The translations under genes were made by a program, and so were the position numbers. 64,000 nt of DNA from Malacoraja senta. Taxonomy: Eukaryota. The notes beneath the pieces were generated by a model. It did not search any database, had not been told where the DNA came from, and saw only the letters and a program-made list of their open reading frames with translations. This document shows, in pieces, positions 13,861 to 58,332 of this stretch; the stretch's first letter is position 1; every line of letters starts with the position of its first letter. The stretch is taken from NCBI GenBank assembly GCA_038087875.1, contig CM075994.1, positions 558,001-622,000 of the forward strand. Direction: 5' to 3'.

Positions 13861-14060
13861 NNNNNNNNNNNNNNNNNNNNNNNNNNNNNNNNNNNNNNNN
13901 NNNNNNNNNNNNNNNNNNNNNNNNNNNNNNNNNNNNNNNNNNNNNNNNNNNNNNNNNNNNNNNNNNNNNNNNNNNNNNNNNNNNNNNNNNNNNNNNNNNN
14001 NNNNNNNNNNNNNNNNNNNNNNNNNNNNNNNNNNNNNNNNNNNNNNNNNNNNNNNNNNNN
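13861..14060. other. Assembly gap (200 N)
   Basis: Run of N. Confidence 1.
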
Positions 14061-15024: not shown

Positions 15025-15129
15025 ATCGTTCGCACACATCCACACCCAGAGACTGCACTCACCCCACACACAAACCCTCTCCCCATCACCCCTCCCATTC
15101 ACACTCAGTCCCCACCCCCCACCGTCCCT

Positions 15130-18015
15130 CTCAGGGCACAACTCGGTGCGCGTCTCCACCGCTGGATGGTCAGATCCGTGTGTGGCCCCAGCTGCCGCCG
15201 TGTGGTTTCAGCTCTGCGGTCCCGGCCTGCAGCAGGAAGTACATTCTGCACGAAGCAGCTGCCATCTGTCTCTGACCCGGGATCCGGACTTTGGTGGGGG
15301 GGGAGTCGGCTCACTGATGTTATCTGGTGCTCTGGAGGCTGGCCTGCTGGTACAAATGTTGTGAAGTGGACATTTCCTGCTGATGTTTGTGGGGCAGCAT
15401 TTGTGATCATTCGCCTCTGTTCCAGGATTGATGCTAGCTGTCTGAGAACTTGGTTATGCTGCCAAGTGTAACACCCTTGGGCGAGGATCGTAGTGCATCC
15501 TGTTAAAATGTACCTTAGTGATGCAGGTGCTTGGCAAAGGGAGCAAGTGGGGTCTTCTCTGAACCACTGCTTCAGGTTCTGGGATGATGGTAGAACATCA
15601 TAAGTGGCTCTGATGACAAAACATAGCCGAGATCCTTCCATTTGCCAGATTTCACGCCAGCTGAGTTTCCTCTTTTCCAGGCTCTCCCAGTTAGTGCATT
15701 GGCCCTGCTTGGCCATTGAGACGGACTTGGCATGTCGCTCTGTCTCCCCCCGTCTTCTCACCTCCTCCACCTTGACCCGTCTTTTCTCCACTGATGTTGC
15801 CTTGTGTCCTTGAAGAGCTTTTGGGACGAGCCCGAGCCCGGGTCTCCAGTGTTGAACTTGGCCAACCATATCCTGGAAATGGAGAGCAGAGAACGGCTTC
15901 AGACGGGGTCCACTTCCTGCCCGTTGCCACACGGGGGGCTGCTGTTTGAATAACAGTATCTTCAGATTCAGTGAGGGTCATGACCAACCTTGCTTTAGTG
16001 CATTTGAACTCTTCCACAAGTCCTGCAATGGGCAATTCCAATTTGCCACTCCCGTACAGTCCGACAGCACTTAAGCATCGTGGAAGTCCAAGCCACTGTT
16101 TCACATGTGCGCTGACCATTCTTTCCAGCTTTTCCACTTTGTTGATGGGGATTGCATACATAGTTAAAGGCCACATGATTCTTGGTAGTATGTCAAATTG
16201 GAAGCGCCACAGCTTGAGTTTTCCTGGTAGCAAGGTCCTGTTGATGCGAGCTATGTGCTTGTATCCCTTTTGAGTTGTTCAAACTGCTCGGTGTCCTTGA
16301 GCTTTGCATCATACCATCGGCCCAAACTCTTCACTTGCATTTCTGAAACAGTTGGAACAGGTATACCTTCAATATGAAATCTTTGATCCTTGACTTGACC
16401 TTTGACAATGGAGATGCTTCTGCACTTGCTGGGTTTAATCTTCATCCTTGCCCATGTGATGTTTTGATGAAGTTTTTCCAGGAGTTTCTTGGTGCAGGGG
16501 ACAGTTATCATTAGTGTTGTTATATCGTCCATATAGGCTCATATAGGTGGTAACCACTGACCACACTGTAGCCGTTTTCCTCCCACAACCCATTTTGATG
16601 CTCTGATAATGAGCTCCATTGCCATAGTGAAGGTCAATGGGGAGATGGTGCACCCCGCCATGATGCCTACTTCCAGTGGTTGCCTCGCTGTGGTAAAGTC
16701 TGATGTTGTGAGACAAAATTGCAGATCCTGGAAGTAGTTTTTTTACCAGATTTGTTATTATTGCAGGCACCTGAAAGAATTCAAAAGCAGTCCACAGTAG
16801 CGAATGAGGAACTGATCCATAGGCGTTGGCCAGGTCGAGAAACAAGACATGCAGATTCTTTCTTTCTTTCTTAGCAATCTGGATTTGATGCCATATGATG
16901 CTGGTATGTTCAAGGCATCCGTGAAGCCTGCTATGTCAGCCTTTTGGATTGACGTATCAATGAAATGGTTTTGTTTCAGATACTTTGTGAGTCTTTTCGC
17001 CACCACACTGAAAAAGATTTTGCCCTGTTAAAAAGGTTTATTTGCCAAAACTGTTCGATAGTGGATGAATTTTTAATTCTTTTGGGATCAGCATTCCCCC
17101 CTGCTCTTCGCCATGCTTTGGGGATGACTTCCTTTTCCCACGCAACCGTCATGTTCCTCCAGAAAAATTTCAGAATATCTGGGGCATTCTTGTGGACACA
17201 ATAGAACACAATTAAGGCCTGGTGCAGAGGCCGTTCTTGCCTTCCTCACTACTTCTTCTTACCTCACTCAGCTTGTGTGGGCTTATATCTAATTGATGAT
17301 GTGGGGGTGAGATTGGTGGGATGTCAGTGGGGACAAAAATCAGTTCATCTTTTAACTCATCAAAGTGGATGGTTCTGATGTGTCCTTCAACCTCCTTTTT
17401 TGACGCTTTCAGGGATCCTCTTTTCTCTTTTGTGAAAATGCCTTTCACAAACTTAAAGTGATCTTTGTTGAAGTCTGTTCTTGCTTTTTCCTTCTTTTGC
17501 GTTGTTTCCTTAAATTCTCCGCTCTGCTCAGCTTCGAAGCCTTTAGGTCCTCTTGAAGGAGGTTGATGACCTCCCTATCTTATGCTGTTGCTATTTTCCA
17601 CATCTTTCTCAGGCCTCTTCTTTCTTTAACAAGTCGTTAGATTTGCTGGTGACGACGGGACTTGGGGGGAGGAGGCCTATCTTTTCTGCTGTGTTGTTCC
17701 TTCTCGCCAAATTTCTCCTTTCCATAGCTGTAGACTAGATCACCCATCTTCTCCAACTTCTTTTCTGCTGATCCCTTGATTCCACTTAAGATTAAGCTCA
17801 CATCTGCATTGATGGTTTCCCACTCCTTGCTGTTAGACTTTGGCCATTTCACCAACGGCTTATGTCCTTGCATGTTCTCCACTTTACGACGTGCCTGGTT
17901 GTGTCTTGGTCTGTTGCCTGAAACTTCTGCCACATCCCGTAGGGTGCTGATGCTCTGCGGACTGTGGATTTCTTCCTGCCACTGTGTTTCATCCGACTGA
18001 TTTGACCTTCCTCTT
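15130..18015 (-). mobile_element. Degenerate RLE-type (R2/NeSL group, HERO-like) non-LTR retrotransposon
   Basis: Frameshifted minus-strand pieces in order: KWPKSNSKEW, FLDLANAYGSVPH (RT), YMDDITTL (catalytic), WARMKIKPSKCRSISI, ILPRIMWPL, and CSLCQAPASLRYILTGC...YTWQHNQVLRQLA (CCHC knuckle and RHN motif preceding a restriction-like endonuclease). Confidence 0.8.
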
Positions 18016-33832: not shown

Positions 33833-34219
33833 ACGCGTGGAACTCGGTTACTACTCACCGTTCAGCGGGTCACCGTGAGATCAGGGCGACCCGGAGCCGA
33901 ACATGGGCCGCTCAGTAAATTTCCGCAAAATCATATCCAGTTTATTTTCAATCGGCTCGTTATTTTCTCTCTTTTTCTTTGGTAAGTGTTTTTTTAAATA
34001 AATTAATTGTCTGTTCAGGATCATTTAGTTCTCCGTGACGCGTGAAACTCGGTTACTTCTCGCCTGTTCAGCGGGTCACCGTAATCCCAGGGCGACGCGG
34101 AGCCGAACATGGGCCGTCCAGTAGATCTCCGCAAAATCAGTTTCCTTTCAATCGGCTCGTTGCTTCGGGAAGTGTTTTTTTCAATTATTTGTCTGTTCAG
34201 GATCATTTAGTTCTCCGTG
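33833..34219 (+). repeat. Tandem duplication of the 5'UTR/leader-exon region (33833-34037 and 34038-34219); second copy disabled
   Basis: Both copies run ACGCGTG..AACTCGGTTACT...GGAGCCGAACATGGGCCG...TGTCTGTTCAGGATCATTTAGTTCTCCGTG. Copy 2 (ATG at 34109) has lost most hydrophobic codons and its donor reads GGGAAGT instead of GGTAAGT. Confidence 0.85.
33903..33981 (+). CDS. Exon 1 (signal peptide) of an IgSF cell-surface receptor: MGRSVNFRKIISSLFSIGSLFSLFFF
   Basis: The ATG is in a good Kozak context (AACATGG). It encodes a basic N-region and a hydrophobic core. The exon is 79 nt and ends in phase 1 at a perfect G|GTAAGT donor, in frame with the downstream Ig exons (G|CC = Ala). It sits in non-repetitive, CpG-rich DNA. 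Confidence 0.75.
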
Positions 34220-39075: not shown

Positions 39076-40297
39076 AAAACAACACAGATGCTGGTTTATA
39101 CCAAAGATAGACACAAAGTGCTGGATTAACTCAGCGGGCCAGGCAGCATCTCTGGAGAACATGGACAGGTGACGTTTCGGGTCGGGACTATCTTCAGACC
39201 CTTCTTCGGAAGTAATGGTCCCGATCCGAATCCATACCTATCATTTTCCTCCAGAGATGCTGCCGGGCCGACTGAGTTCCTGGAAAACTTTGTGTCTACG
39301 TTTGCAAAATGCACGGCTTTGGAGAAAGAGATGGCGTGTCTGATGGTGTGGGACGTTGAGAGGGCCAGCATGGGAGCGACGGGCCGAAGGGTTTCTCGCG
39401 CTGTTGCATTCTTTGGTTGTGCATTTGTTCTTGTTTGTTGTTGCCGTTGTTTCTGTTGTGAAGATTTTGAGGTGAGCTTGCATTTGGAGAGTTATGATCA
39501 GACCAGTGTGAACTTGTTCTGAGAAAGTCTAGAAACACTAGACACCGTAGAAGATGGTACGCTGAGCAAACTAATAAACTGTTGGAAGAACTCAGCGGGT
39601 CAGGCAGCATCGGGGGGGAGGTGTGGACAGATGTTATGCACCAGTACTCTCCTTCCAAACCTTGAAGAAGTGCCCCGACCAGGAGACGTCGCCTGTCCAT
39701 TCCCCTCCACATATAGACACGAGAAGATGGAGTAACTCAGCGGGACAGGCAGAATCTCCGGAGAAAAGATGGGTGACGTTTCGGGTCGATACCCTTCTTC
39801 AGGCTGAGAGTCAGGGGAGAGGCGAGACACAGAGATATGGAACGGTGGGGAGTGAAAGCGAGATATCAAAGGGAGTGAGGGTCAAGGAAAATATAGCAGA
39901 GATTGTTGTTAGCTGACGGGGAAAGTGACAACGAAGCAAACGGAGATACAATCTAATCAGGGAGATAGTCAGAGAGGGAAAGCAAGGGTTACTTGAAGTT
40001 AGATAAGTCAATATTCATATCGTTGGATGTGTAAGCGTCCCAATGATCTTATAGAAACAGACGGGATCTTATAGAAACAGACGGGATCTTATAGAAACAG
40101 AGGGGATCTTTTAGAAACATACATAATTCTTACAGGATAGGACAGGGTAGATGCAGGAAAAGTGTTCCCTATGTTGCAGGAGTCCAGAACCAGGGGTCAC
40201 AGATTAATTAAATGGCGGTGCTGACCTGAAGGGCCGAATGTCCTCCTCCGACACCTATTTTCTAAGTTTCTATGACCCTTTATCTGTGATGTTGCAG

Positions 40298-40477
40298 CCT
40301 CAGAAAGCAGCGTCACCGTGAGCGTCCGTGAGAGAGAAGTGAGCGGTACCATCGGCCACTCGGCCCTTCTCGCCAGCTGCTACTCCACACCTGACCTCTG
40401 CTCCCAACTGACATTAGTGTGGCGTTTCCACTACAGCACAACTCCGCTTGTGACACTGAGCCGATCAAACTGCTCTC
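40298..40477 (+). pseudogene. Truncated Ig half-exon A1 (strands A-C only)
   Basis: TGTTGCAG| acceptor, then ASESSVTVSVREREVSGTIGHSALLASCYSTPDLCSQLTLVWRFHYSTTPLVTLSRSNCS, breaking into a C/T-rich tract. No in-phase donor was seen. Confidence 0.75.
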
Positions 40478-40728
40478 ACCCCCTCCCACCCTCTCCCCCC
40501 CTCTCCTCCCCACTCATCCTCCCTCTCCCTTTCCCCTGCCATTCCCACTCCCACTCCAATCCCCCACCCTCACCTTCGCCGCAGCCTGGGTCAGTGTTGT
40601 GTTGTCGAGTGGCCTCCAGCTCCCCCCATCGCAGATGCTGCCTGACATCACGGTCACACGGGGACGACCGTGTCCCGGGGCTGGGATTGTAACCGAGACC
40701 CGTTGATCCTTTACCTGTTGTGTTGCAG

Positions 40729-41157
40729 CCTCGGGAAGCAGAGTCTCCGTGAGCATCCGTGAGAGTGAAGTGAACGGGACCGTCGGCCGCTCGGCCCTTC
40801 TCGCCAGCTGCTACTCTACCGACCCCTGCTCCCAGCTAACATTAGTGTGGGGTTTGCACAACGCCACACCTCCGCTTGTGAGACTGAGACGATCAAACTG
40901 CTCTTCGCTTGTGAGACTGAGCCGATTAGACTGCCCTCCACAACCTGACCGACCCGGTTGTAACTGTTCAGTTCGCTGGACGACCAGTCCTTCCCACACG
41001 GGCCGAGTCCAACTCTACCCCGAGAATGGGTCCCTGTTACTGCGGGATTTACGGCGCAGTGATAGCGGAGTGTACGAGATATCGGTTTACAGCGGCGGAA
41101 ACAGCGCTGTTAAAGACAACGTGACATTAACGGTCCACAATTACCACACTGGGACAG
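40729..41157 (+). CDS. IgV-like exon B1 (HEPACAM/CEACAM/CD2-type N-domain)
   Basis: Acceptor TGTTGCAG| and donor ACAG|GTAGGA; 429 nt, phase 1-1, open. Motifs GTVGRSALL, C-strand W, GRVQLYPENGSLLLRDLRRSDSGVYEISV and VTLTV closely recall the HEPACAM V domain (GTVGKSALL...ENGSLLL...DEGTYEVEI...INLTV). Confidence 0.85.
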
Positions 41158-43819
41158 GTAGGAACCGGCGGAGCGTTCAAACACAGAGGGGGCAATTAAA
41201 GCATGAAAGTCCAAATAGCAATGGGGTAACAAAGCGGGGTAATTAAACTGAGAGTAACCCCTTCCATCCCATCGGCGCAGCGGTAGATTTGCTGCCTCAC
41301 GGCGCCAGAGACCCGGGTTCGATACTCACTACGGGTGCTGCCTGCACGAAGTTTGTAGGTTCTCCCCGTTTTTTCTACAGGAGCTCCGGTTTCCTCCCAC
41401 ACTCCAAAGACGTAGAAGGTTTGTAGGTTAATTGGCTTCGGTAAAAATGTGAATTGTCCCTGATGTGTGTGGGATAGTGCGAGTGGGCCGAAGGATCGGT
41501 TTCCGCGCTGGTCTAGTGAGACGGGAATGATTTCGCGTTCAGAGACCACCATCTAACGCAAACACTCCGCTTCCCTCTTTGATGGAGCAAGGTTGATATG
41601 TACCTAAGGCAGCGGTGCAGTTGCTGTCTAACAGGACCAGAGACCCGGGTTCGATCCTGACTACGGGTGCTGTCTGCACGGAGTTTGTACGTTCTCCCCG
41701 TGACCGCATGGGTTTTCTCCGTTTGCTCTGGTTTCCTTCCACGCTCCAAAGACGGACCGATTTGTAGGTTAATTGGTTTGGTAAAAACACAAATAATCCC
41801 CAGTACGTGTGGGATAGTGTAGCTGTGCGGGGATCGCTGGTCGGCGCGGACTCGTGGGGCGAAGGTTCTGTTTCCACGCTGTATCTCTGAACAAAACTAA
41901 ACTAAGCTTGTCGTTGGCGGCGAGCTGAATATTGTCACCGGGTGTCAGCGATTGCAATCCCTTGTCGAAGTATGTTTAGGTTAGAGATACAGCATCGACG
42001 CAGGCCCTTCGGCCCCCTTCACGACGACCATCGATCACCGTTCACACTAGCTCTATTTTATCCCTCTTTCGCACCCACTCCCTGCACACCTAGAGGCAAT
42101 TTACAGAGGGCCAATTAACCTACAAACCCGCACGTCTTTGGGAAATGGGAGGATACCAGAGCACCCGGAGGAAACCCACCCGGTCACAGGGAGAACGTAC
42201 AAACTTCACGCAGAGACAGCATCCGGGGTCAGTATATAAAATTGTGAGAGGCACAGATAGGGTAGACAATCAGAACATTTTTTCTCAGAGTGGAAATATC
42301 AAGGACTAGAGGGCATAGGTTTAAGATGAGAGGAGATAAGTTCAAAGGAGCGGGACAAACGTTTTACAGAGGTGGGTGCCTGGAAAGCGCTGCCTGGGGT
42401 GGTGGTGGTGGTAAAAACGATAGTGGCATTTCAGAAGCATTTAGATAGGCACATGCGAATGCAGGGACTGATAGGGTATAGATCACGTGCATGTAGATGA
42501 GAATAGTTTAACTTGCGATCACGTATGGGCATTGTGGGCCGAAAGGCCTGCTCATGTACTGTACCGTTCCGCAGTCTACGTTCTCTTTTACCGAATGGAG
42601 GTGGGACTCAGATCATTGACGGAGTTGTCGGGGACCAAAGAATCAGAGGATATTCATGATGCACAAGGCGGCCTTTCGGCCCGACATGTTGGTGGTGGCC
42701 GCATGTTCTGATCTCTTTAAGCGACGTTGTGCATTAGTGATATTGTCCATCTGTACCTTCGTTACACACCTGCATTTAGCTGCACACCATTGTCCGCAAA
42801 CGGACCCTTCACTCAGTCTATCTTCTACATTTGTTTTCTTGATTCATCTAATGCCCTCGCTAACGGTGTGGGACCGTTGAGAGAGCCAGCATGGGAGCGA
42901 TGGGCCGAAGGGTTTCTCGCGCTGTTGCATTCTTTGGTTGTCCATTTGTTCTTGTTTGTTGTTGCCATTGTTTCTGTTGTGAAGATTTTGAGGTGAGCTT
43001 GCATTTGGCGAGTTATGATCAAACCCGAATGAACTTGTTCCGAGAAAATCTAGAAACACTAGAGACCGTAGAAGATGGAACGCTGAGCAAACTAATAAAC
43101 TGTTGGAAGAACTCAGCCGGTCAGGCAGCATCTGGGGAGAGGTGTGGACAGATGTTTTTCACCAGTACTCTCCTTCCAAACCGTGAAGAAGGGTCCCGAC
43201 CAGGAGACGTCGCCTGTCCATTCCCCTCCACATATAGACACGAGAAGATGGAGTAACTCAGCGGGACAGGCAGAATCTCGGGAGAAAAGATGGGTGACGT
43301 TTCGGGTCGATACCCTTCTTCAGGCCGAGAGTCAGGGGAGAGGCGAGACACAGAGATATGGAAGGGTGGGGAGTGAAAGCGAGATATCAAAGGGAGTGAG
43401 GGGTCAAGGAAAATATAGCAGAGATTATTGTTAGCTGACGGGGAAAGTGACAACGAAGCAAACGGAGATACAATCTAATCAGGGAGATAGTCAGAGAGGG
43501 AAAGCAAGGGTTACTTGAAGTTAGATAAGTCAATATTCATATCATTAGATGTGTAAGCGGCCCAATGAGCTTATAGAAACAGAGGGGATCTTATAGAAAC
43601 AGACGGGATCTTATAGAAACAGAGGGGATCTTTTAGAAACATACATAATTCTTACAGGATAGGACAGGGTAGATGCAGGAAAAGTGTTCCCTATGTTGCA
43701 GGAGTCCAGAACCAGGGGTCACAGATTAATTAAATGGCGGTGCTGACCTGAAGGGCCGAATGTCCTACTCCGACACCTATTTCCTATGTTTCTATGACCC
43801 TTTATCTGTGATGTTGCAG

Positions 43820-43999
43820 CCTCAGAAAGTAGCGTCACCGTGAGCGTCCGTGAGAGAGAAGTGAGCGGGACCATCGGCCACTCGGCCCTTCTCGCCAGAT
43901 GCGACTCCACACCTGATCTCTGGTCCCAGCTAACATTAGTGTGGCGTTTCCACTACAGCACAACTCCGCTTGTGAGACTGAGCCGATCAAACTGCTCTC
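43820..43999 (+). pseudogene. Truncated Ig half-exon A2
   Basis: Copy of A1 in unit 2, with the same acceptor and the same truncation point. Confidence 0.75.
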
Positions 44000-44249
44000 A
44001 CCCCCTCCCACCCTCCCCCCCCTCTCCCACCCACTCATCCTCCCTCTCCCTTTCCCCTGCCATTCCCACTCCCACTCCAATCCCCCACCCTTGCCTTCGC
44101 CGCAGCATGGGTCAGTGTCGTGTTGTCGAGTGGCCTCCAGCTCCCCCCATCGCACATGCTGCCTGACATCACGGTCACACGGGGACGATCGTGTCCCGGG
44201 GCTGGGATTGTAACCGGGACCCGTTGATCCTTTACCTGTTGTGTTGCAG

Positions 44250-44681
44250 CCTCGGGAAGCAGAGTCTCCGTGAGCGTCCGTGAGAGTGAAGTGAACGGGA
44301 CCGTCGGCAGCTCGGCCCTTCTCGCCAGCTGCTACTCTACACTCGGTCCCTGCTCCCAGCTAACATTAGTGTGGCGTTTCCACCCCAGCACAACTCCGCT
44401 TGTGAGACTGAGACGATCAAACTGCTCTCCGCTTGGGAGACTGAGCCAATCAGACTGCCCTCCACACCCTGACCGACCCGGTTGTAACTGTTCAGATGAC
44501 TGGATGGCCGGTCCTTCCCACACGGGGCGCGTCCAACTCTACCCCGAGAATGGGTCCCTGTTACTGCGGGATTTACGGCGCAGTGATAGCGGAGTGTACG
44601 AGATATCGGTTTACAGCGGCGGAAACATCGCTGTTAAAGACAACGTGATATTAACGGTCCACAATTACCACACCGAGACAG
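44250..44681 (+). CDS. IgV-like exon B2
   Basis: 432 nt, phase 1-1, open, with the same acceptor and donor as B1. ASGSRVSVSVRESEVNGTVGSSALLASCYSTLGPCSQLTLVWRFHPSTTP...DSGVYEISVYSGGNIAVKDNVILTVHNYHTET. Confidence 0.85.
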
Positions 44682-47321
44682 GTAGGAACCGGCGGAGCGT
44701 TCAAACACAGAGGGGGCAATTAAAGTATGAAAGTCCAAATAGCAATGGGGTAACAAAGCGGGGTGATTAAAGTGAGCGTAACCCCCTTCCCTCCCATCGG
44801 CGCAGCGGTAGATTTGCTGCCTCACGGCGCCAGAGACCCGGGTTCGATACTCACTACGGGTGCTGCCTGCACGAAGTTTGTACGTTCTCCCCGTTTTTTC
44901 TACGGGAGCTCCGGTTTCCTCCCACACTCCAAAGACGTAGAAGGTTTGTAGGTTAATTGGCTTCGGTAAAAATTTGAATTGTCCCTGATGTGTGTGGGAT
45001 AGTGCGAGTGGGCCGAAGAATCGGTTTCCGCGCTGGTCTAGTGAGACGGGAATGATTTCGCGTTCAGAGACCACCATCTAACGCAGACACTCCGCTTCCG
45101 TCTTTGATGGAGCAAGGTTGATATGTACCTAAGGCAGCGGTGCAGTTGCTGTCTAACAGGACCAGAGACCCGGGTTCGATCCTGACTACGGGTGCTGTCT
45201 GCACGGAGTTTGTACGTTCTCCCCGTGACCGCATGGGTTTTCTCCGTTTGCTCTGGTTTCCTTCCACGCTCCAAAGACGGACCGGTTTGTAGGTTAATTG
45301 GCTTGGTAAAAATACAAATAATCCCCAGTGCGTGTGGGATAGTGTAGGGGTGCGGGGAGCGCTGGTCGGCGCGGACTCGTGGAGCGAAGGTTCTGTTTCC
45401 ACGCTGTATCTCTGAACACAACTAAACTAAGCTTGTCTTTGGCGGCGAGCTGAATATTGTCACCGGGTTTCAGCGATTGCAATCCCTTGTCGAAGTATGT
45501 TTAGGTTAGAGATACAGCATCGACACAGGCCCCTCGGCCCCCTTCACGCCGACCATGGATCACCGTTCACACTAGCTCTATTTTATCCCTCTTTCGCACC
45601 CACTCCCTGCACACCTAGAGGCAATTTACAGAGGGCCAATTAACCTACAAACACGCACGTCTTTGGGAAATGGGAGGATACCAGAGCACCCGGAGGAAAC
45701 CCACCCGGTCACAGGGAGAACGTACAAACTTCACGCACAGATAGCACCCGGGGTCAGTATATAAAATTGTGAGAGGCACAGATGGGTAGACAATCAGAAC
45801 ATTTTTTCTCAGAGTGGAAATATCAAGGACTAGAGGGCATAGGTTTAAGTTGAGAGGAGATAAGTTCAAAGGAGCGGGACAAACGTTTTACAGAGGTGGG
45901 TGCCTGGAAAGCGCTGCCTGGGGTGGTGGTGGTGGTAAAAACGATAGTGGCATTTCAGAAGCATTTAGATAGGCACATGCGTATGCAGGGACTGATAGGG
46001 TATAGACCACGTGCATGTAGATGAGAATAGTTTAACTTGCGATCACGTATGGACATTGTGGGCCGAAAGGCCTGCTCATGTAGTGTACCGTCCCGCAGTC
46101 TACGTTGTCTTTTACCCAATGGAGGTGGGACTCACATCATTGACGGAGTTGTCGGGGACCAAAGAATCAGAGGATATTCATGATGCACAAGGCGGCCTTT
46201 CGGCCCGTCATGTTGGTGGTGGCCGCATGTTCTGATCTCTTTAAGCGACGTTGTGCATTAGTGATATTGACCATCTGTACCTTCGTTATACACCTGCATT
46301 TAGCTGCACACCATTGTCCGCAAACGGACCCTTCACTCAGTCTATCTTCTACATTTGTTTTCTTGATCCATCTAATGCCCTCGCTAACGGTGTGGGACCG
46401 TTGAGAGAGCCAGCATGGGAGCGATGGGCCGAAGGGTTTCTCGCGCTGTTGCATTCTTTGGTTGTGCATTTGTTCTTGTTTGTTGTTGCCGTTGTTTCTG
46501 TTGTGAAGGTTTTGAGGTGAGCTTGCATTTGGAGAGTTATGATCAGACCAGTGTGAACTTGTTCTGAGAAAATCTAGAAACACTAGAGACCGTAGAAGAT
46601 GAACGCTGAGCAAACTAATAAACTGTTGGAAGAACTCAGCGGGTCAGGCAGCATCTGAGGGGAGGTGTGGACAGATGTTTTTCATCAATAATCTCCTTCC
46701 AAACCTTGAGGAAGGGCCCCGACCAGGAGACGTCGCCTGTCCATTGCCCTCCACATATAGACACGAGAAGATGGAGTAACTCGCGGGACAGGCAGAATCT
46801 CCGGAGAAAAGATGGGTGACGTTTCGGGTCGATACCCTTCTTCAGGCTGAGAGTCAGGGGAGAGGCGAGACACAGAGATATGGAAGGGTGGGGAGTGAAA
46901 GCGAGATATCAAAGGGAGTGAGGGTCAGGGAAAATATAGCAGAGATTATTGTTAGCTGACGGGGAAAGTGACAACGAAGCAAACGGAGATACAATCTAAT
47001 CCGGGAGATAGTCAGAGAGGGAAAGCAATGGTTACTTGAAGTTAGATAAGTCAATATTCATATCGTTGGATGTGTAAGCGGCCCAATGATCTTATAGAAA
47101 CAGACGGGATCTTATAGAAACAGAGGGGATCTTTTAGAAACATATACAATTCTTAGCGGATAGGACAGGGTAGATGCAGGAAAAGTGTTCCCTATGTTGC
47201 AGGGAGTCCAGAACCAGGGGTCACAGATTAATTAAATGGCGGTGCTGACGTGAAGGGCCGAATGTCCTACTCCGACACCTATTTTCTAAGTTGCTATGAC
47301 CCTTTATCTGTGATGTTGCAG

Positions 47322-47502
47322 CCTCAGAAAGCAGCGTCACCGTGAGCGTCTGTGAGATAGAAGTGAGCGGGACCATCGGCCACTCGGCCCTTCTCGCCAG
47401 CTGCTACTCCACACCTGACCTCTGGTCCCAACTGACGTTAGTGTGGCGTTTCCACTACAGCACAACTCCGCTTGTGAGACTGAGCCGATCAAACTGGCTC
47501 TC
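47322..47502 (+). pseudogene. Truncated Ig half-exon A3
   Basis: Copy of A1/A2 in unit 3. Confidence 0.7.
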
Positions 47503-47753
47503 ACCCCCTCCCACCCTCTCCCCCCCTCTCCTCCCCACTCATCCTCCCTCTCCCTTTCCCCTGCCATTCCCACTCCCACTCCAATCCCCCACCCTTGCCT
47601 TCGCCGCAGCCTGGGTCAGTGTCGTGTTGTCGAGTGGCCTCCAGCTCCCCCCATCGCAGAAGCTGCCTGACCTCGCAGTCACACGGGGACGATCGTGTCC
47701 CGGGGCTGGGATTGTAACCGAGACCCGTTGACCCTTTACCTGTTGTGTTGCAG

Positions 47754-48147
47754 CCTCGGGAAGCAGAGTCTCCGTGAGCGTCCGTGAGAGAGAAGTGAAC
47801 AGACCGTCGGCCGCTCGGCCCTTCTCGCCAGCTGCTACTCTACACCCGACCACTGCTCCCAGCTAAGACTAGATTGGCGTTTACACCCAGCACAACTCCG
47901 CTGTGAGTCTGAGCCGATCAGACTGCCCTCCACAACCTGACCGACCCGTTGTAACTGTTCAGATGACTGGATGGCCGGACCTTCCCACACGGGGCGAGTC
48001 CACCTCTACCCCGAGAATGGGTCCCTGTTACTGCGGGATTTACGGCGCAGTGATAGCTGAGTGTACGAGATATCGGTTTACAGCGGCGGAAACAGCGCTG
48101 TTAAAGACACGTGACATTAACGGTCCACAATTACCACACTGGGACAG
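47754..48147 (+). pseudogene. IgV-like exon B3, frameshifted as assembled (pseudo-exon or sequencing error)
   Basis: Acceptor and donor are intact. Length is 394 nt, which equals B2 minus the 33-nt internal repeat minus five single-base deletions. Confidence 0.65.
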
Positions 48148-49829
48148 GTAGGAACCGGCGGAGCGTTCAAACACAGAGGGGGTAATTAAAGCATGAAAGT
48201 CCAAATAGCAATGGGGTAACAAAGCGGGTTAACCCCCTTCCCTCCCATCGGCGCAGCGGTAGATTTGCTGCCTCACGGCGCCAGAGACCCGGTTCGATAC
48301 TCACTACGGGTGCTGCCTGCACGAAGTTTGTACGTTCTCCCCGTTTTTTCTACGGGAGCTCCGGTTTCCTCCCACACTCCAAAGACGTAGAAGGGTTGTA
48401 GGTTAATTGCTCGGTAAAATTTTGAATTGTCCCTGATGTGTGTGGGATAGTGCGAGTGGCCGGCGCGGTCTGGGTGGGCCGAAGGATCGGTTTCCGCGCT
48501 GGTCTAATGAGAGGGGAATGATTTCGCGTTCAGAGACCACCATCTAACGCAGACACTCCGCTTCCCTCTTTGATGGAGCAAGGTTGAAATGTACCTAAGG
48601 CAGCGGTGCCAGTTGCTGTCTAACAGGACCAGAGACCCGGGTTCGATCCTGACTACGGGTAGCACCCGTATGGGTTTCTCCGTTTGCTCTGGTTTCCTTC
48701 CACGCTCCAAAGACGGACTGGTTTGTAGGTTAATTGGCTTGGTAAAAATACAAATAATCCCCAGTGCGTGTGGGATAGTGTAGGTGTGCGGGGAGCGCTG
48801 GTCGGCGCGGACTCGTGGGGCGAAGGTTCTGTTTCCACGCTGTATCTCTGAACAAAACTAAACTAAGCTTGTCGTTGGCGGCGAGCTGAATATTGTCAAC
48901 GGGTTTCAGCCGATTGCAATCCCTTGTCGAAGTATGTTTAGGTCAGAGATACAGCATCGACACAGGCCCTTCGGCCCCCTTCACGCCGACCATGGATCAC
49001 CGTTCACACTAGCTCTATTTTATCCCTCTTTCGCACCCACTCCCTGCACACTTAGAGGCAATTTACAGAGGGCCAATTAACCATACAAATCCGCACGTCT
49101 TTGGGAAATGGGAGGATACCAGAGCACCCGGAGGAAACCCACCCGGTCACAGGGAGAACGTACAAACTTCATGCACAGACAGCACCCGGGGTCAGTATAT
49201 AAAATTGTGAGAGGCACAGATGGGTAGACAATCAGAACATTTTTTCTCAGAGTGGAAATATCAAGGACTAGAGGGTATAGGTATAAGATGAGAGGAGATA
49301 AGTTCAAAGGAGCGGGGCAAGCGTTTTACAGAGGTGGGTGCCTGGAAAGCGCTGCCTGGGGTGGTGGTGGTGGTGGTAAAAACGATAGTGGCATCTCAGA
49401 AGCATTTAGATAGGCACAGGGATATGCAGGGACTGATGGGGTATAGATCACGTGCATGTAGATGAGAATAATTTAACTTGGGATCACGTATGGACATTGT
49501 GGGCCGAAAGGGCTGCTCATGTACTGTACCGTTCCGCAGTCAACGTTCTCTTTTACCCAATGGAGGTGGGACTCAGATCATTGACGGAGTTGTCGGGGAC
49601 CAAAGAATCAGAGGATGTTCATGATGCACAAGGCGGCCTTTCGGCCCGTCATGTTGGTGGTGGCCGCGTGTTCTGATCTCTTTAAGCGACGTTGTGCAGT
49701 AGTGATATTGTCCATCTGTACCTTCGTTACACACCTGCATTTAGCTGCACACCATTGTCCGCAAACGGACCCTTCATTCAGTCTATCTTCCACATTTGTT
49801 TTCTTGATCCATCTAATGCCCTCGCTAAT

Positions 49830-50555: not shown

Positions 50556-51095
50556 TGTGTAGGAAGGAACTGCACATTTCGGGACCCCGAAACGTCACCC
50601 AATCCTTCTTTCCAGAGATGCTGCTTGTCGCGCTGAGTCACTCGAGCTTTTTATGTCTATCAAACGTTATTCCCTTTATCCCGTATCTGTGCCCTGTAGA
50701 CTGCTTGCTTGTAATCACGAACAGTCTTTCCGCTGACTGGATAGCACGCAACAAACGTGCTTTTAGACACAAAAAGCTGGAATAACTCAGTGGGATAGGG
50801 AGCATCTCTGGAGAGAAGGAATGGGTGGCGTTCAGGTCGAGCCCTTCTTCAGACGAAACGTTTCTCGACCCGAAACGTCACCCATTCCTTCTCTCCAGAG
50901 ATGCTGGCTGTCCCGCTGAGTTATTCAGGCATTTTGAGTCTATCATCTGCCAGCATCTGCAGTTCCGTTTTACACAAACATGCTTTTCACTGTACCTCGG
51001 CATATGGGACAATAATAGCCTAAACGAAACTAATCTAACTCCCAATTCAACCGCGCGAAACTAATCTGATGATCAGTTGATTTATACTGTTTCAG

Positions 51096-51226
51096 TTACA
51101 GAGTATGCTCCGACCGGAGGGACTGCGGCGCCCCCTAAGCCAACAACTGCTTTCTGTCTGCGGGCGTTGGTCCTTGGAAGTCTGACCTTATTCGGGATAT
51201 GCCTGTATGCGATCTACAGATACTAA
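51096..51226 (+). CDS. Terminal stalk and transmembrane exon: VTEYAPTGGTAAPPKPTTAFCLRALVLGSLTLFGICLYAIYRY*
   Basis: Acceptor TACTGTTTCAG| in phase 1, in frame with the Ig exons. It encodes a Pro/Thr stalk and a ~23-aa hydrophobic segment, stopping at TAA 51224-51226. It is an island of unique sequence among repeats. Confidence 0.8.
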
Positions 51227-51419
51227 GTGAGAAGAGACAGCGGGAACTCCGGGTTCTCGCGAAGGTTTTCATATTCGGACTGTGCGGAGCTTTAAAATCC
51301 AAGTGCACCTCGTCCCGGGATTTTGTAAAGAATAATCCAATAATGGCACGGCAGCCTCATTCCTCAAAACATTAACTTTGATGTGTTGTGGTTATTGGGA
51401 AAATAACGATGATAAACAA

Positions 51420-51425
51420 AATAAA
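51420..51425 (+). promoter_or_regulatory. Candidate polyadenylation signal of the Ig receptor gene
   Basis: AATAAA about 195 nt after the stop codon, before repeat sequence resumes. Confidence 0.5.
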
Positions 51426-51590
51426 CACATTATCCTTGACTACATTCAGGATGTTCGTAATTGATAGATTTTTTCATTAAATTGATTGAAAGATACACAG
51501 CATTGAAACAGGTACTTTGGCCCACCGAAGATAGACACAACATTCTGAGTAACTCAGCGGACAGGCCCCATCTCGGGAGAGAAGGAATGG

Positions 51591-55495: not shown

Positions 55496-58332
55496 CTAGG
55501 AAACTGCACCGTTGGGCCCCGTTCCCCCAACACAATATTCATCACTCACCCGTTCTCCCAACGTAACCCGTTCCCCCCAACGCAATATCCACCACTCAAG
55601 CATTGCCCCCAACTGCGCAGGTGCGGCTCATTTCCCTCATTCCCCAGCACTCCCTCCCCCACCGCTTCACTCTCCCTCGTCTTTCCCCTCTTCTCCTCCC
55701 CTCTTCCACTCCCCCCTTCACCTCTCCCTCCCTCTCCTTCCTTACCCTCAGTCACTCCCTCCCTCCCTCCATAACCATCTCCCCTCCCTACCCCCTCCCC
55801 CCTCTCCCTCTATCTCCCAGCTCCACATTCCTGACCTCTCCCTATCACACTCCCCCACTAAACACAATATTTAAATAACATTTTTCCCCCACTCCCTCCC
55901 CATCCTTACAACAATATATCAAATCTCTCATTGCACTTGGTGGCACAGCATTGACGGGCAGTTTATGTTCATCCGCTGCTAAGTCAGAATCAGAATCAGA
56001 TTCAGAATCAGAATCACACTTTATTCGCCAAGTATGTTTTGCAACATACGAGGAATTTCATTTGCCAGGTCAGTCGTACAATTAAAAGTAACAGATCAGT
56101 CAAAAACACATTTTAACATGAACATCCACCACAGTGACTCCTACACATTCCTCACTGTGATGGAAGGCGAAATAAAGTTCAAGTCCTTCCTTTTGTTCTT
56201 CCTCGTCGGGGGCCTCGTGCCCTCCGTTGACGGGATGATCTTGACTCCCGTAGCCGGCGGCGTTCGGGTCCTCCGCGTCGAGGCGATCAGCTCCCGCATC
56301 GGGGGGATGTCAGCACCCCCGCGCCGGGCGATCGAACCTCGCGTCGGGGCTGGTCGAGCCTTCCGCGGCGTTGGGCTCCCGACTAGCCTCACCCGAGACC
56401 GGGCAGTGCAGCAGGGTGAAGAAACTTAAGAGCGGCGTCCCACAGGGCTCAGTGCTGGCACCAATGCTGTTCAAAATCTACATCCATGAGCTGCCTGCAA
56501 CACAGTCAAAGAAATATGGCTTTGCTGATGACCTGGCCATCCTACTCAGTAAGCCATCCGGGAAGCAGTAGAAGAGGGCCTCTCTGAAGACATCAACATC
56601 CTGTCTTCATACCTGAGGAACTGACGCCTCAAGCTCAGCATGGGTAAGACAACATCTTCAATGTTCCACCTCAACAACAGGGAAGCGACCCGCGAGATGA
56701 ACGTCATGGTGGTTAATGCCCGGTTACGGTCCAAGCCTGTCCCCACGTACCTCGGTGTGAGCTCGACAGAACATTGTCATTCAAACAACACCTGGAAGGT
56801 GCCAAGGCAAAGAACAAGCGCCCATGCCGTACTGATACGCCGCCTAGCCGGCACCTCATGGGGAGCCACGACGAAGACACTGCGCATGTCCACAGTGGCC
56901 CTGGTGTTCTCAGCCCGCCGAGTACCGCGCCCCGGTCTGGTGCCGTAGCCCTCATGCCAAGAAGCTGGATGCTGCCCTCAACAGCGCCCTGCGGACTGTC
57001 TCCGGATGCCTACGAGCCACCCAGTAAACCAACTGCCTGTCCTCGCTGGCGTTGCCCAGCCAACATCAGATGAGATGCAGCCACGCTGGCCCTCTCTCGA
57101 AAGGCGCAGACCAGTGAATCCCACCTCCTCCATCAGATCGTCACAGAGACACCAGGGCGAGTGCGCCTCAAGTCACGGCACCCCTTTGCCACGCAAGCCC
57201 AAGAGTTGCTCTGCACAACACCGGCTGACGCTTCTAAGGCTGCCTGGGTCAAGACGAGATGGAGAGAACAGTGGAAGTCATCGAAACCATCTAGGCTACA
57301 CCAGTAGTACATCAATGACCCCATGGACATCTCTGGCCAGGACTTGCCCCGAAAGCAGTGGACAACCCTCAACCGCTTGAGGACAGGCGTCGGATGCTAT
57401 GGAGTAGCGATGAAGAGGTGGGGCCTCGTGGACAGCGCCTCCTGCGAGTGTAGGGACCGAACACAGACAGTGGAGCACATAGTCACTAGTTGCCCCAAAC
57501 ACCGGCCAACGAATGGTGAACGAGGTCTGATTGACCTGGACAATGACACGTTGGCCTGGCTAGCCTCAAAGGAGCTGCAGGTCTAAAAGACATACGACAG
57601 AAGACGACAGAAGAAGGAGCTCCCGACTAGCCTCACCCGAGACTGCGAGCCCTTGTTGGTAAGTGCACGGTGGTCGCGGTGGGAGCGATCCCAGGCAAGG
57701 GATCCGCTCCGATGTTAAGTTCACGCCCCGCGGTGGGGCTCACGACAGTCCGAGGAGGCTTCCAGCTCCATCGATATTAGGCCGCCGAGCCCGGAGAACG
57801 AGATCCGAAAATTGAACACATCTCTGGGAAGGTACGAACTTAAAAAAAGTATCCCCCGATTCCCTCCCCCCACATAAAACATACCAAAGAACATTAAAAC
57901 AAAACTTTTAACAAACAAAAAATAACAAAAATAAAGAAGTGCCAGTGGAACACTGCTGACGGGCAGCTGCTGTTTTATTTTTTTATGTACATGAGATCCC
58001 ATTGCGATATCTTTGTGGGGTGGAGCACTGCTGACGGGCAGTTTATGTAAATGAGATCCAATTGTGACGTCATAGCTGCTAACTGCCACTGCAACTTGAA
58101 CTGATTTTTCTCAAAGTGGATTTTGTAAAGTTTTAAATGTGAATATCTTGTAAAATAATGTAACATCAATGTGAATGAAACTTGATACACCACACCACAT
58201 GACAATTGTGAGCACAAAGATTGTAGTGCTATCGTCTACCGTTTTTGCGTAATTCATGGCATGAATCACACACAGACACGAACGCAAACATATAGACTCA
58301 TAAACAAACACGATGAGTTAGTGATATATAGA
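55496..58332 (-). mobile_element. Putative non-autonomous Helitron/Helentron-like element containing nested retroelement insertions
   Basis: Minus strand begins A|TCTATATATCACTAA and ends with a GC-rich imperfect hairpin (GGGCCCAACGGTGC) shortly before CTAG. Internal CTGACGGGCAG repeats occur on both sides of the nested insertion (about 55952 and 57955-58040). Confidence 0.45.
56400..57618 (+). mobile_element. 5'-truncated Vingi/Ingi-like LINE flanked by a 25-bp target-site duplication
   Basis: Encodes GVPQGSVLAPMLF...YGFADDLAI, LAGTSWGA, and C-terminal WTTLNRLRTGVG...KRWG...CECRDRTQTVEHIVTSCP. TSD GCTCCCGACTAGCCTCACCCGAGAC at 56375-56399 and 57619-57643. The ORF has stops and frameshifts. 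Confidence 0.75.

Follow-up and report, generated by a model that had tools for sequence, protein, structure and literature searches.

Among the described receptor systems, NKp30 (NCR3) has the closest architecture to that of the gene considered here, which lies in a stretch of 64,000 nucleotides from the skate Malacoraja senta (hereafter the window), and to our knowledge NKp30 carries a canonical V-domain disulfide and has no ITIM-bearing twin. It consists of one IgV domain, a transmembrane (TM) segment with an Arg and a tail lacking ITAM, and it couples to CD3-zeta or FcR-gamma, as set out in the accessible parts of PMC2195691 and PMC6514059, which describe such Arg-Asp pairing for NKp46 and NKp30. 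The LRC-type receptors NKp46, GPVI, FcalphaR, OSCAR, LILRA2 and PIR-A, as well as Xenopus XFL TM1, share with the skate gene an Arg near the outer end of the TM segment, the lack of an ITAM of their own and the existence of inhibitory siblings (PMC2413239, in the portion available). In that portion, an NxxR motif is given for the TM segments of NKp46, GPVI, FcalphaR, OSCAR and LILRA2, and NKp46 has C2 domains according to the text accessible to us, whereas the skate TM segment has no Asn at -3 and the skate gene is V-set only.

By features and predicted structure, the nearest named clusters of the skate V domain include VSTM5 and HEPACAM, from which the gene is set apart by the lack of a C2 exon within the window, by an additional pair of Cys in the C'-C'' hairpin and by its organization as a paired multigene family. 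The N domains of CEACAM lack the canonical V disulfide, as does the skate family, and the V domains of CD300/TREM/pIgR-like receptors possess it. In the CEACAM1/CEACAM3-type system of mammals, Xenopus and reptiles, which resembles the skate family in that V exons are alike within species, the V exons of paired receptors are kept so by gene conversion, and the genes show synteny between lipe and bcl3 (PMC5112662, as far as its text was accessible). Activating CEACAM members have an ITAM-like tail of their own and no TM Arg, whereas the skate gene has the TM Arg. Another multigene IgV family with activating and inhibitory members is already described in a skate, namely the MDIRs of the clearnose skate, which are CD300/TREM/pIgR-like (PMC3031540, available in part). 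With respect to possible partners, a homologue of FcR-gamma was not found in shark genomes as of 2014 (PMC4016189, in its accessible portion), and nothing newer on shark FcR-gamma was found in the open-licence literature.

Compared with these systems, the terminal exon of the skate gene probably encodes the stalk, the TM segment and a likely short, motif-free tail of an activating single-pass IgV receptor that belongs to a paired family, in which the Arg would dock on an ITAM adaptor.

Gene anatomy and the V domain

The gene has the layout signal peptide-IgV-stalk-TM and runs on the + strand from 33903 onward. Its signal-peptide exon (33903..33981, +) begins with ATG, comprises 26 codons, ends in a phase-1 GTAAGT donor and matches the N-terminus of the Leucoraja homologue P0005 at 78% identity over 23 aa; a degenerate second copy of this exon, without a donor site, lies at 34109-34190. 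Further along, self-BLAST (92-94% identity) and a three-way alignment delimit three tandem copies of ~3.5 kb (39345..49828, +), in each of which a full-length V exon is preceded by a truncated half V exon (starts at 40298, 43820 and 47322, +). V1 (40729..41157, +), for which a Pfam V-set match, an AlphaFold model and splice sites were obtained, and V2 (44250..44681, +), 85% identical to V1, are both intact and of phase 1-1; every splice site and the signal exon are intact as well. V3 (47754..48147, +) is broken as assembled, with four 1-nt deletions, one 34-nt deletion and a GGA to TGA change at 48058, and represents either a pseudo-exon or a consensus error. The Leucoraja gene model has a single V exon. 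The proteins of V1 and V2 differ by 15%, so that the ectodomain could be varied by using the two alternatively or in tandem.

In the remainder of the window, tblastn with 16 family proteins detected no V, TM or tail exon beyond the gene, and no flanking host gene was identified. A Pfam scan of nine other long open reading frames of the window returned only RVT_1 (twice) and ALKBH8_N (once), of retroelement type, or nothing. Decayed remnants of LINE-type reverse transcriptase are present at 15100-18000 and 56000-57600, and a 200-N assembly gap occupies 13861-14060.

The V-set match of V1 has an E value of 1.4e-5, just under the cut-off, and the AlphaFold model is a confident V fold (pLDDT 85.5). 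A fold search gave amphioxus VCBP3 as the best match (Z 15.9, rmsd 2.3, 122 residues), with P0, TCR-delta and B7-H3 within 1 Z of it; as many domains match about equally, the similarity is that of a generic IgV domain, and family assignment from the fold search was dropped. None of the 55 aligned members has Cys at the B- and F-strand positions (26 and 117), and the canonical B-F disulfide is thus absent, whereas Cys is found at positions 57 and 79 in 54 and 47 of them, respectively. In the AlphaFold model the latter positions sit on the two strands of a long C'-C'' hairpin, where a disulfide between them may be predicted. An in-frame 33-nt duplication in the V exon (44394-44463 and 40873-40942) adds 11 residues, including a further Cys, to this hairpin; the 11-residue duplication is present in 4/55 aligned members, all skates, and V3 is without it, as are the ITIM-type skate genes. 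By Cys pattern, set against the published description of the MDIRs, the family is not MDIR-like.

The original prediction of a HEPACAM-like IgV domain is borne out by the feature and structure neighbors and by the alignment, and several members bear the automatic annotation HEPACAM-like. VSTM5_C (PF28389) was unmatched in P0005, P0021 and P0022 in a copy of Pfam that may predate this model. Sequence matches in the PDB to CEACAM, JAML and CD2 are weak and partial, the best one to CEACAM (E 3e-6) covering ~37 residues of the D-F strand region only, and NKp30 is not among them. Membership in a CEACAM-like group, also suggested at the outset, is therefore doubtful, and the family is probably not CEACAM because it has relatives in fowl, namely chicken LOC771657 and several duck members, where complete CEACAM was not found (PMC13278318, in the part accessible).

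The V domain belongs to a HEPACAM/VSTM5-like family without a name that is present in sharks, rays, birds and turtles. The closest matches are from skates, in agreement with the cartilaginous-fish origin that had been proposed for the DNA. Among the matches listed, two of the underlying searches having scored 8000 candidates, most are 'uncharacterized' proteins of skates, stingrays, sawfish, torpedo ray and many sharks, and the more distant ones come from turtles, birds (chicken LOC771657, ducks) and frogs. The open-licence PMC/bioRxiv literature, a scope largely outside Immunogenetics and Dev Comp Immunol, yielded no description of the family and no paper naming LOC771657, and supplements of CEACAM papers could list some of the genes under other names.

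The membrane arginine and the cytoplasmic tail

A phase-1 acceptor of the ttttcag type ends at 51095, and the terminal exon that follows (51096..51226, + as assembled) encodes a Pro/Thr-rich stalk, AFCL, an Arg, 18 uncharged residues and Arg-Tyr before TAA at 51224-51226. The Arg near the extracellular end of the TM segment (CGG, 51161..51163, +) had been noticed from the window alone and is confirmed: the codon is unchanged in near-identical contigs of the public runs X1 and X2, and the residue falls in the same alignment column in Leucoraja P0005, the catshark Scyliorhinus P0019 and the two bamboo sharks Hemiscyllium P0021 and Chiloscyllium P0179. This recurrence in skate and shark homologues argues that its presence exceeds chance. 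The C-terminus of Leucoraja P0005 is 60% identical to the terminal exon over 68 positions; Arg, Gly+11, Leu+14 and Tyr+15 are common to the window and the three sharks, and on a helical wheel the positions 0, +4, +8, +11 and +15 from the Arg fall inside 80 degrees.

The depth of the Arg in the membrane is less certain, membrane segments having been judged by Kyte-Doolittle windows only. In the closest clade the Arg is followed by 18-20 uncharged residues, sufficient alone for a TM segment; these 18 in the window, together with an Asp at -4 in the Leucoraja homologue, argue that the Arg may be at the outer membrane interface rather than inside the TM segment. The four residues preceding it have a mean Kyte-Doolittle value of 3.3-4.1 in the sharks, which is strongly hydrophobic, and 2.7 in the window. 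At -3 there is Phe in the window and Leucoraja and Leu in the sharks, and the NxxR motif is absent, which does not agree with the suggestion of a TM segment of NKp46/GPVI/LILRA type. The receptor would work in the manner of paired receptors of the NKp30/LILRA kind; having neither NxxR nor C2, it falls outside the LRC group.

The stop codon was compared over window positions 50960-51500 with four public runs (X1, X2, X3 and X12) of 14 listed, X1 and X2 being two samples of a single organism from a single study. Position 51224, T in the window, is A at the full depth of X1 (2.8, in one contig), X2 (77.5, in two contigs) and X12 (13.4), and at a depth of at least 10.8 out of 18.6 in X3. Between 50960 and 51249, the X1 contig and one X2 contig have a single differing letter, that at 51224, and two gaps, which identifies these near-identical contigs as the same gene as that of the window; the depth of X1 is insufficient alone, and that of the X2 contig is 34.6. 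A second X1 contig (51294-51500) has no differing letter and one gap. X2 contig 24, which aligns at 51008-51249, contains a second copy of the TM exon, ~87% similar and also with A at 51224, and is likely a paralogue, in which case that organism would have at least two genes of this type. Contigs of all four runs read through the intron, and those of X1 and X2 do not bridge 51250-51293 so as to fix the frame of the tail; relatives have, compared with the window, two extra letters behind 51246 and one behind 51276.

The two-residue tail, regarded at first as part of the signature of an adaptor-coupled activating receptor, is present as assembled, but it is doubtful because public contigs and relatives read AAA (Lys) at TAA. 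When the stop is read as X, the segment 51224..51295 (+) gives a likely tail of ~25 residues (25 as read) with neither a tyrosine motif nor anything ITIM-like, and the absence of signaling motifs, which had also been claimed, still stands. The homologue of Leucoraja erinacea (XP_055521960) has a 24-residue tail without Tyr, the tails of Leucoraja and shark homologues are basic and of 11-24 residues, and an automatic gene model predicts 84 residues for the catshark Arg-type. In addition, 14 private 1-2-nt indels are counted in the adjoining tandem copy 3, whereas copies 1 and 2 have five between them (Fisher test relative to private substitutions, p 0.007), and such indel-rich, substitution-poor differences suggest a poor long-read consensus. 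The TAA is most likely a consensus (assembly) error or a rare null allele, and the assembly is probably at fault for the two-residue tail.

The doubtful stop is immediately followed by a good GT donor (GTGAGA, 51227-51232), where relatives have GC. As a phase-0 path to a longer tail this donor was set aside, since in relatives position 51228 is C and the tblastn search gave no tail exon of the family further on in the window. A candidate polyadenylation signal, AATAAA, is found at 51420..51425 (+), and ATTAAA also occurs at 51476.

Arg-type and ITIM-type members

Relatives, all of them automatic gene models, were counted as one model per apparent gene after removal of isoforms and TM-less models (P0004, P0020, P0109, P0155-P0159, P0162, P0173, P0174, P0176 and P0208 were left out). 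A segment was called Arg-bounded when an Arg flanks an uncharged span of <=21, a cut-off chosen after the sequences were seen, and [ILVST]xYxx[ILV] was scored as an ITIM/ITSM-like motif. Among the 23 models with a TM segment in the closest clade, the motif occurs in 1/6 of the Arg-bounded ones versus 14/17 of the others (Fisher p 0.009, indicative only, since related genes are not independent and the cut-off is post hoc). The exceptions are Heterodontus P0172, with Arg and ITIM together, and Hemitrygon P0006/P0007, the closest stingray matches, and Mobula P0010, with neither.

In the sister clade, 14 of 24 models have an Arg with exactly 15 uncharged residues behind it, a span too short to cross the bilayer without the Arg, and the motif is found in four of these 14 and in six of the ten others, a difference that is not significant (p 0.21). 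On sequence grounds, adaptor coupling is more plausible for this clade than for the window gene, and some members of the clade also have an ITIM-like motif. Its sharks and rays include P0250, P0034, P0201, P0203, P0205, P0209, P0213, P0215, P0217, P0119 and P0128. Tetrapod members examined that have a TM segment mostly show neutral segments and tails with ITSM/ITIM; the bird receptors P0212/P0033 (chicken LOC771657), P0008 and P0204 (ducks) combine one to six family V domains with ITSM and ITIM tails. In a motif-free bird subgroup the Arg is 23-26 residues out from a Cys/Gly-rich TM segment and is probably outside the membrane, and two frog proteins have Arg-type TM segments with tails of 0 and 14 residues.

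The V domains and the TM segments of these genes are related in different ways. Within species, the V domains of Arg and ITIM siblings are 93% identical in Hemiscyllium, 98% in C. punctatum, 92% in S. canicula (where ITIM is represented by a TM-less isoform) and 93% in Hemitrygon, compared with 54-85% between Arg-types of different species. V1 of the window shares 83% identity with the ITIM gene of Amblyraja, LOC116990025, and 49-55% with shark Arg-types. In the V-domain tree (43 rows, P0202 and P0140 omitted), grouping is by species, with support of 100/94 for the C. punctatum pair, 99/82 for the S. canicula pair and 95/90 for the skate group, and weak support (87/33) for the Hemiscyllium pair. 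The window TM segment, when compared with 19 other segments, scores best with the Arg-types of Leucoraja (z 14.0), catshark (6.8) and Hemiscyllium (4.5), each with 0/500 shuffles, whereas its scores with the skate ITIM genes (z -0.3 and -0.4), and also with the Arg-types of C. punctatum (1.2) and Hypanus (0.0), are at chance level.

These comparisons show that TM segments group by type across species and V domains by species, which argues that the Arg-type TM exon is older than the shark-ray split and that the V exons are homogenized or re-duplicated in each lineage. Sharks and rays separated over 200 million years ago. By analogy with the CEACAM system (PMC5112662, as cited above), gene conversion may be what keeps the V exons alike. 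An ITIM-bearing sibling had been predicted nearby. Such siblings exist in skates (Amblyraja LOC116990025, whose gene id is near-adjacent to LOC116990023) and, with near-identical V domains, in sharks, and the tblastn search of the flanks for ITIM-tailed paralogues gave none in the window. In other species, siblings lie on contigs of matching length, which would be compatible with a common locus. From its sequences, the elasmobranch family looks paired, with activating and inhibitory forms.

Mechanism, rival readings and significance

In the mechanism that we propose, a ligand would bind the V domain, and the conserved membrane Arg would dock onto an acidic residue in the TM segment of an ITAM adaptor, presumably of the CD3-zeta/FcR-gamma class. 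The Arg, Thr+8, Gly+11 and Tyr+15 may form the one helix face that packs against this adaptor. The ITIM sibling would deliver the opposite signal, and the V exons would be kept alike by conversion for both forms to bind the same ligand, which could well be a pathogen mimic of a self ligand.

The uncharged run of 18-20 residues after the Arg, the Asp at -4 in Leucoraja and the missing NxxR are compatible with a non-signaling decoy or adhesion sibling, in which the Arg would mark the outer membrane boundary and the protein would compete with the ITIM form for ligand in need of no adaptor. Neutral motif-free members (P0006, P0007) and the failure to find FcR-gamma in sharks (PMC4016189, 2014, in the portion noted) also fit such a protein. 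We nevertheless regard it as unlikely: the shark residues before the Arg are strongly hydrophobic, those of the window less so, and the Arg with its small/polar face has been kept from skates to sharks, whereas TM segments of the ITIM type diverge freely.

Still less probable is a decaying pseudogene or null allele, in which the TAA, the indels of the tail and the broken V3 would be real in the sequenced animal. Paired receptor families turn over fast, and the second nonsense change at 48058, the frameshifts of V3, the three half exons and the degenerate signal exon at 34109 would suit such a gene; the intact V1, V2, signal exon and splice sites speak against it, as do the X1 and X2 samples, which read AAA, include no T-bearing contig and differ mainly by short indels. 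The assembled exon, in which small stalk residues and a hydrophobic stretch are followed by no more than two residues ahead of the stop, could also be taken for a GPI signal, an alternative raised in the original prediction. That a GPI-anchored protein is encoded is highly improbable, as it requires the very stop that public contigs do not show, and Leucoraja and shark homologues have basic tails; with the two-residue tail unsupported, the GPI reading is unsupported as well. An activating receptor coupled through its Arg is the reading that we consider likely.

A broader proposal can be put forward only tentatively, and we hold it to be rather doubtful as a whole. It states that this is a paired system without prior description, which arose before sharks and rays diverged and has relatives among amphibians, turtles and birds; that its non-NxxR Arg recruits an ITAM adaptor, CD3-zeta or an unknown ancestor having been the original partner; and that the Cys-stapled C'-C'' hairpin is the surface targeted by pathogens.

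Cartilaginous fish are the oldest lineage that has adaptive immunity, and few families of activating and inhibitory receptors are described from them; the present family now gives matched Arg/ITIM pairs in several sharks and rays. Its relatives in chicken and duck, with ITSM/ITIM tails, are likewise without a name. The striking two-residue tail of the window gene is to be corrected as a probable assembly error. Two questions become testable, namely the identity of the ITAM adaptor that served Arg-type receptors in early jawed vertebrates, and whether conversion among the V exons of paired genes is as old as cartilaginous fish. If the broader proposal is true, the recruitment of an ITAM adaptor in animals reported to be without FcR-gamma would leave CD3-zeta, or an unknown ancestor, as the first partner of Arg-type receptors.
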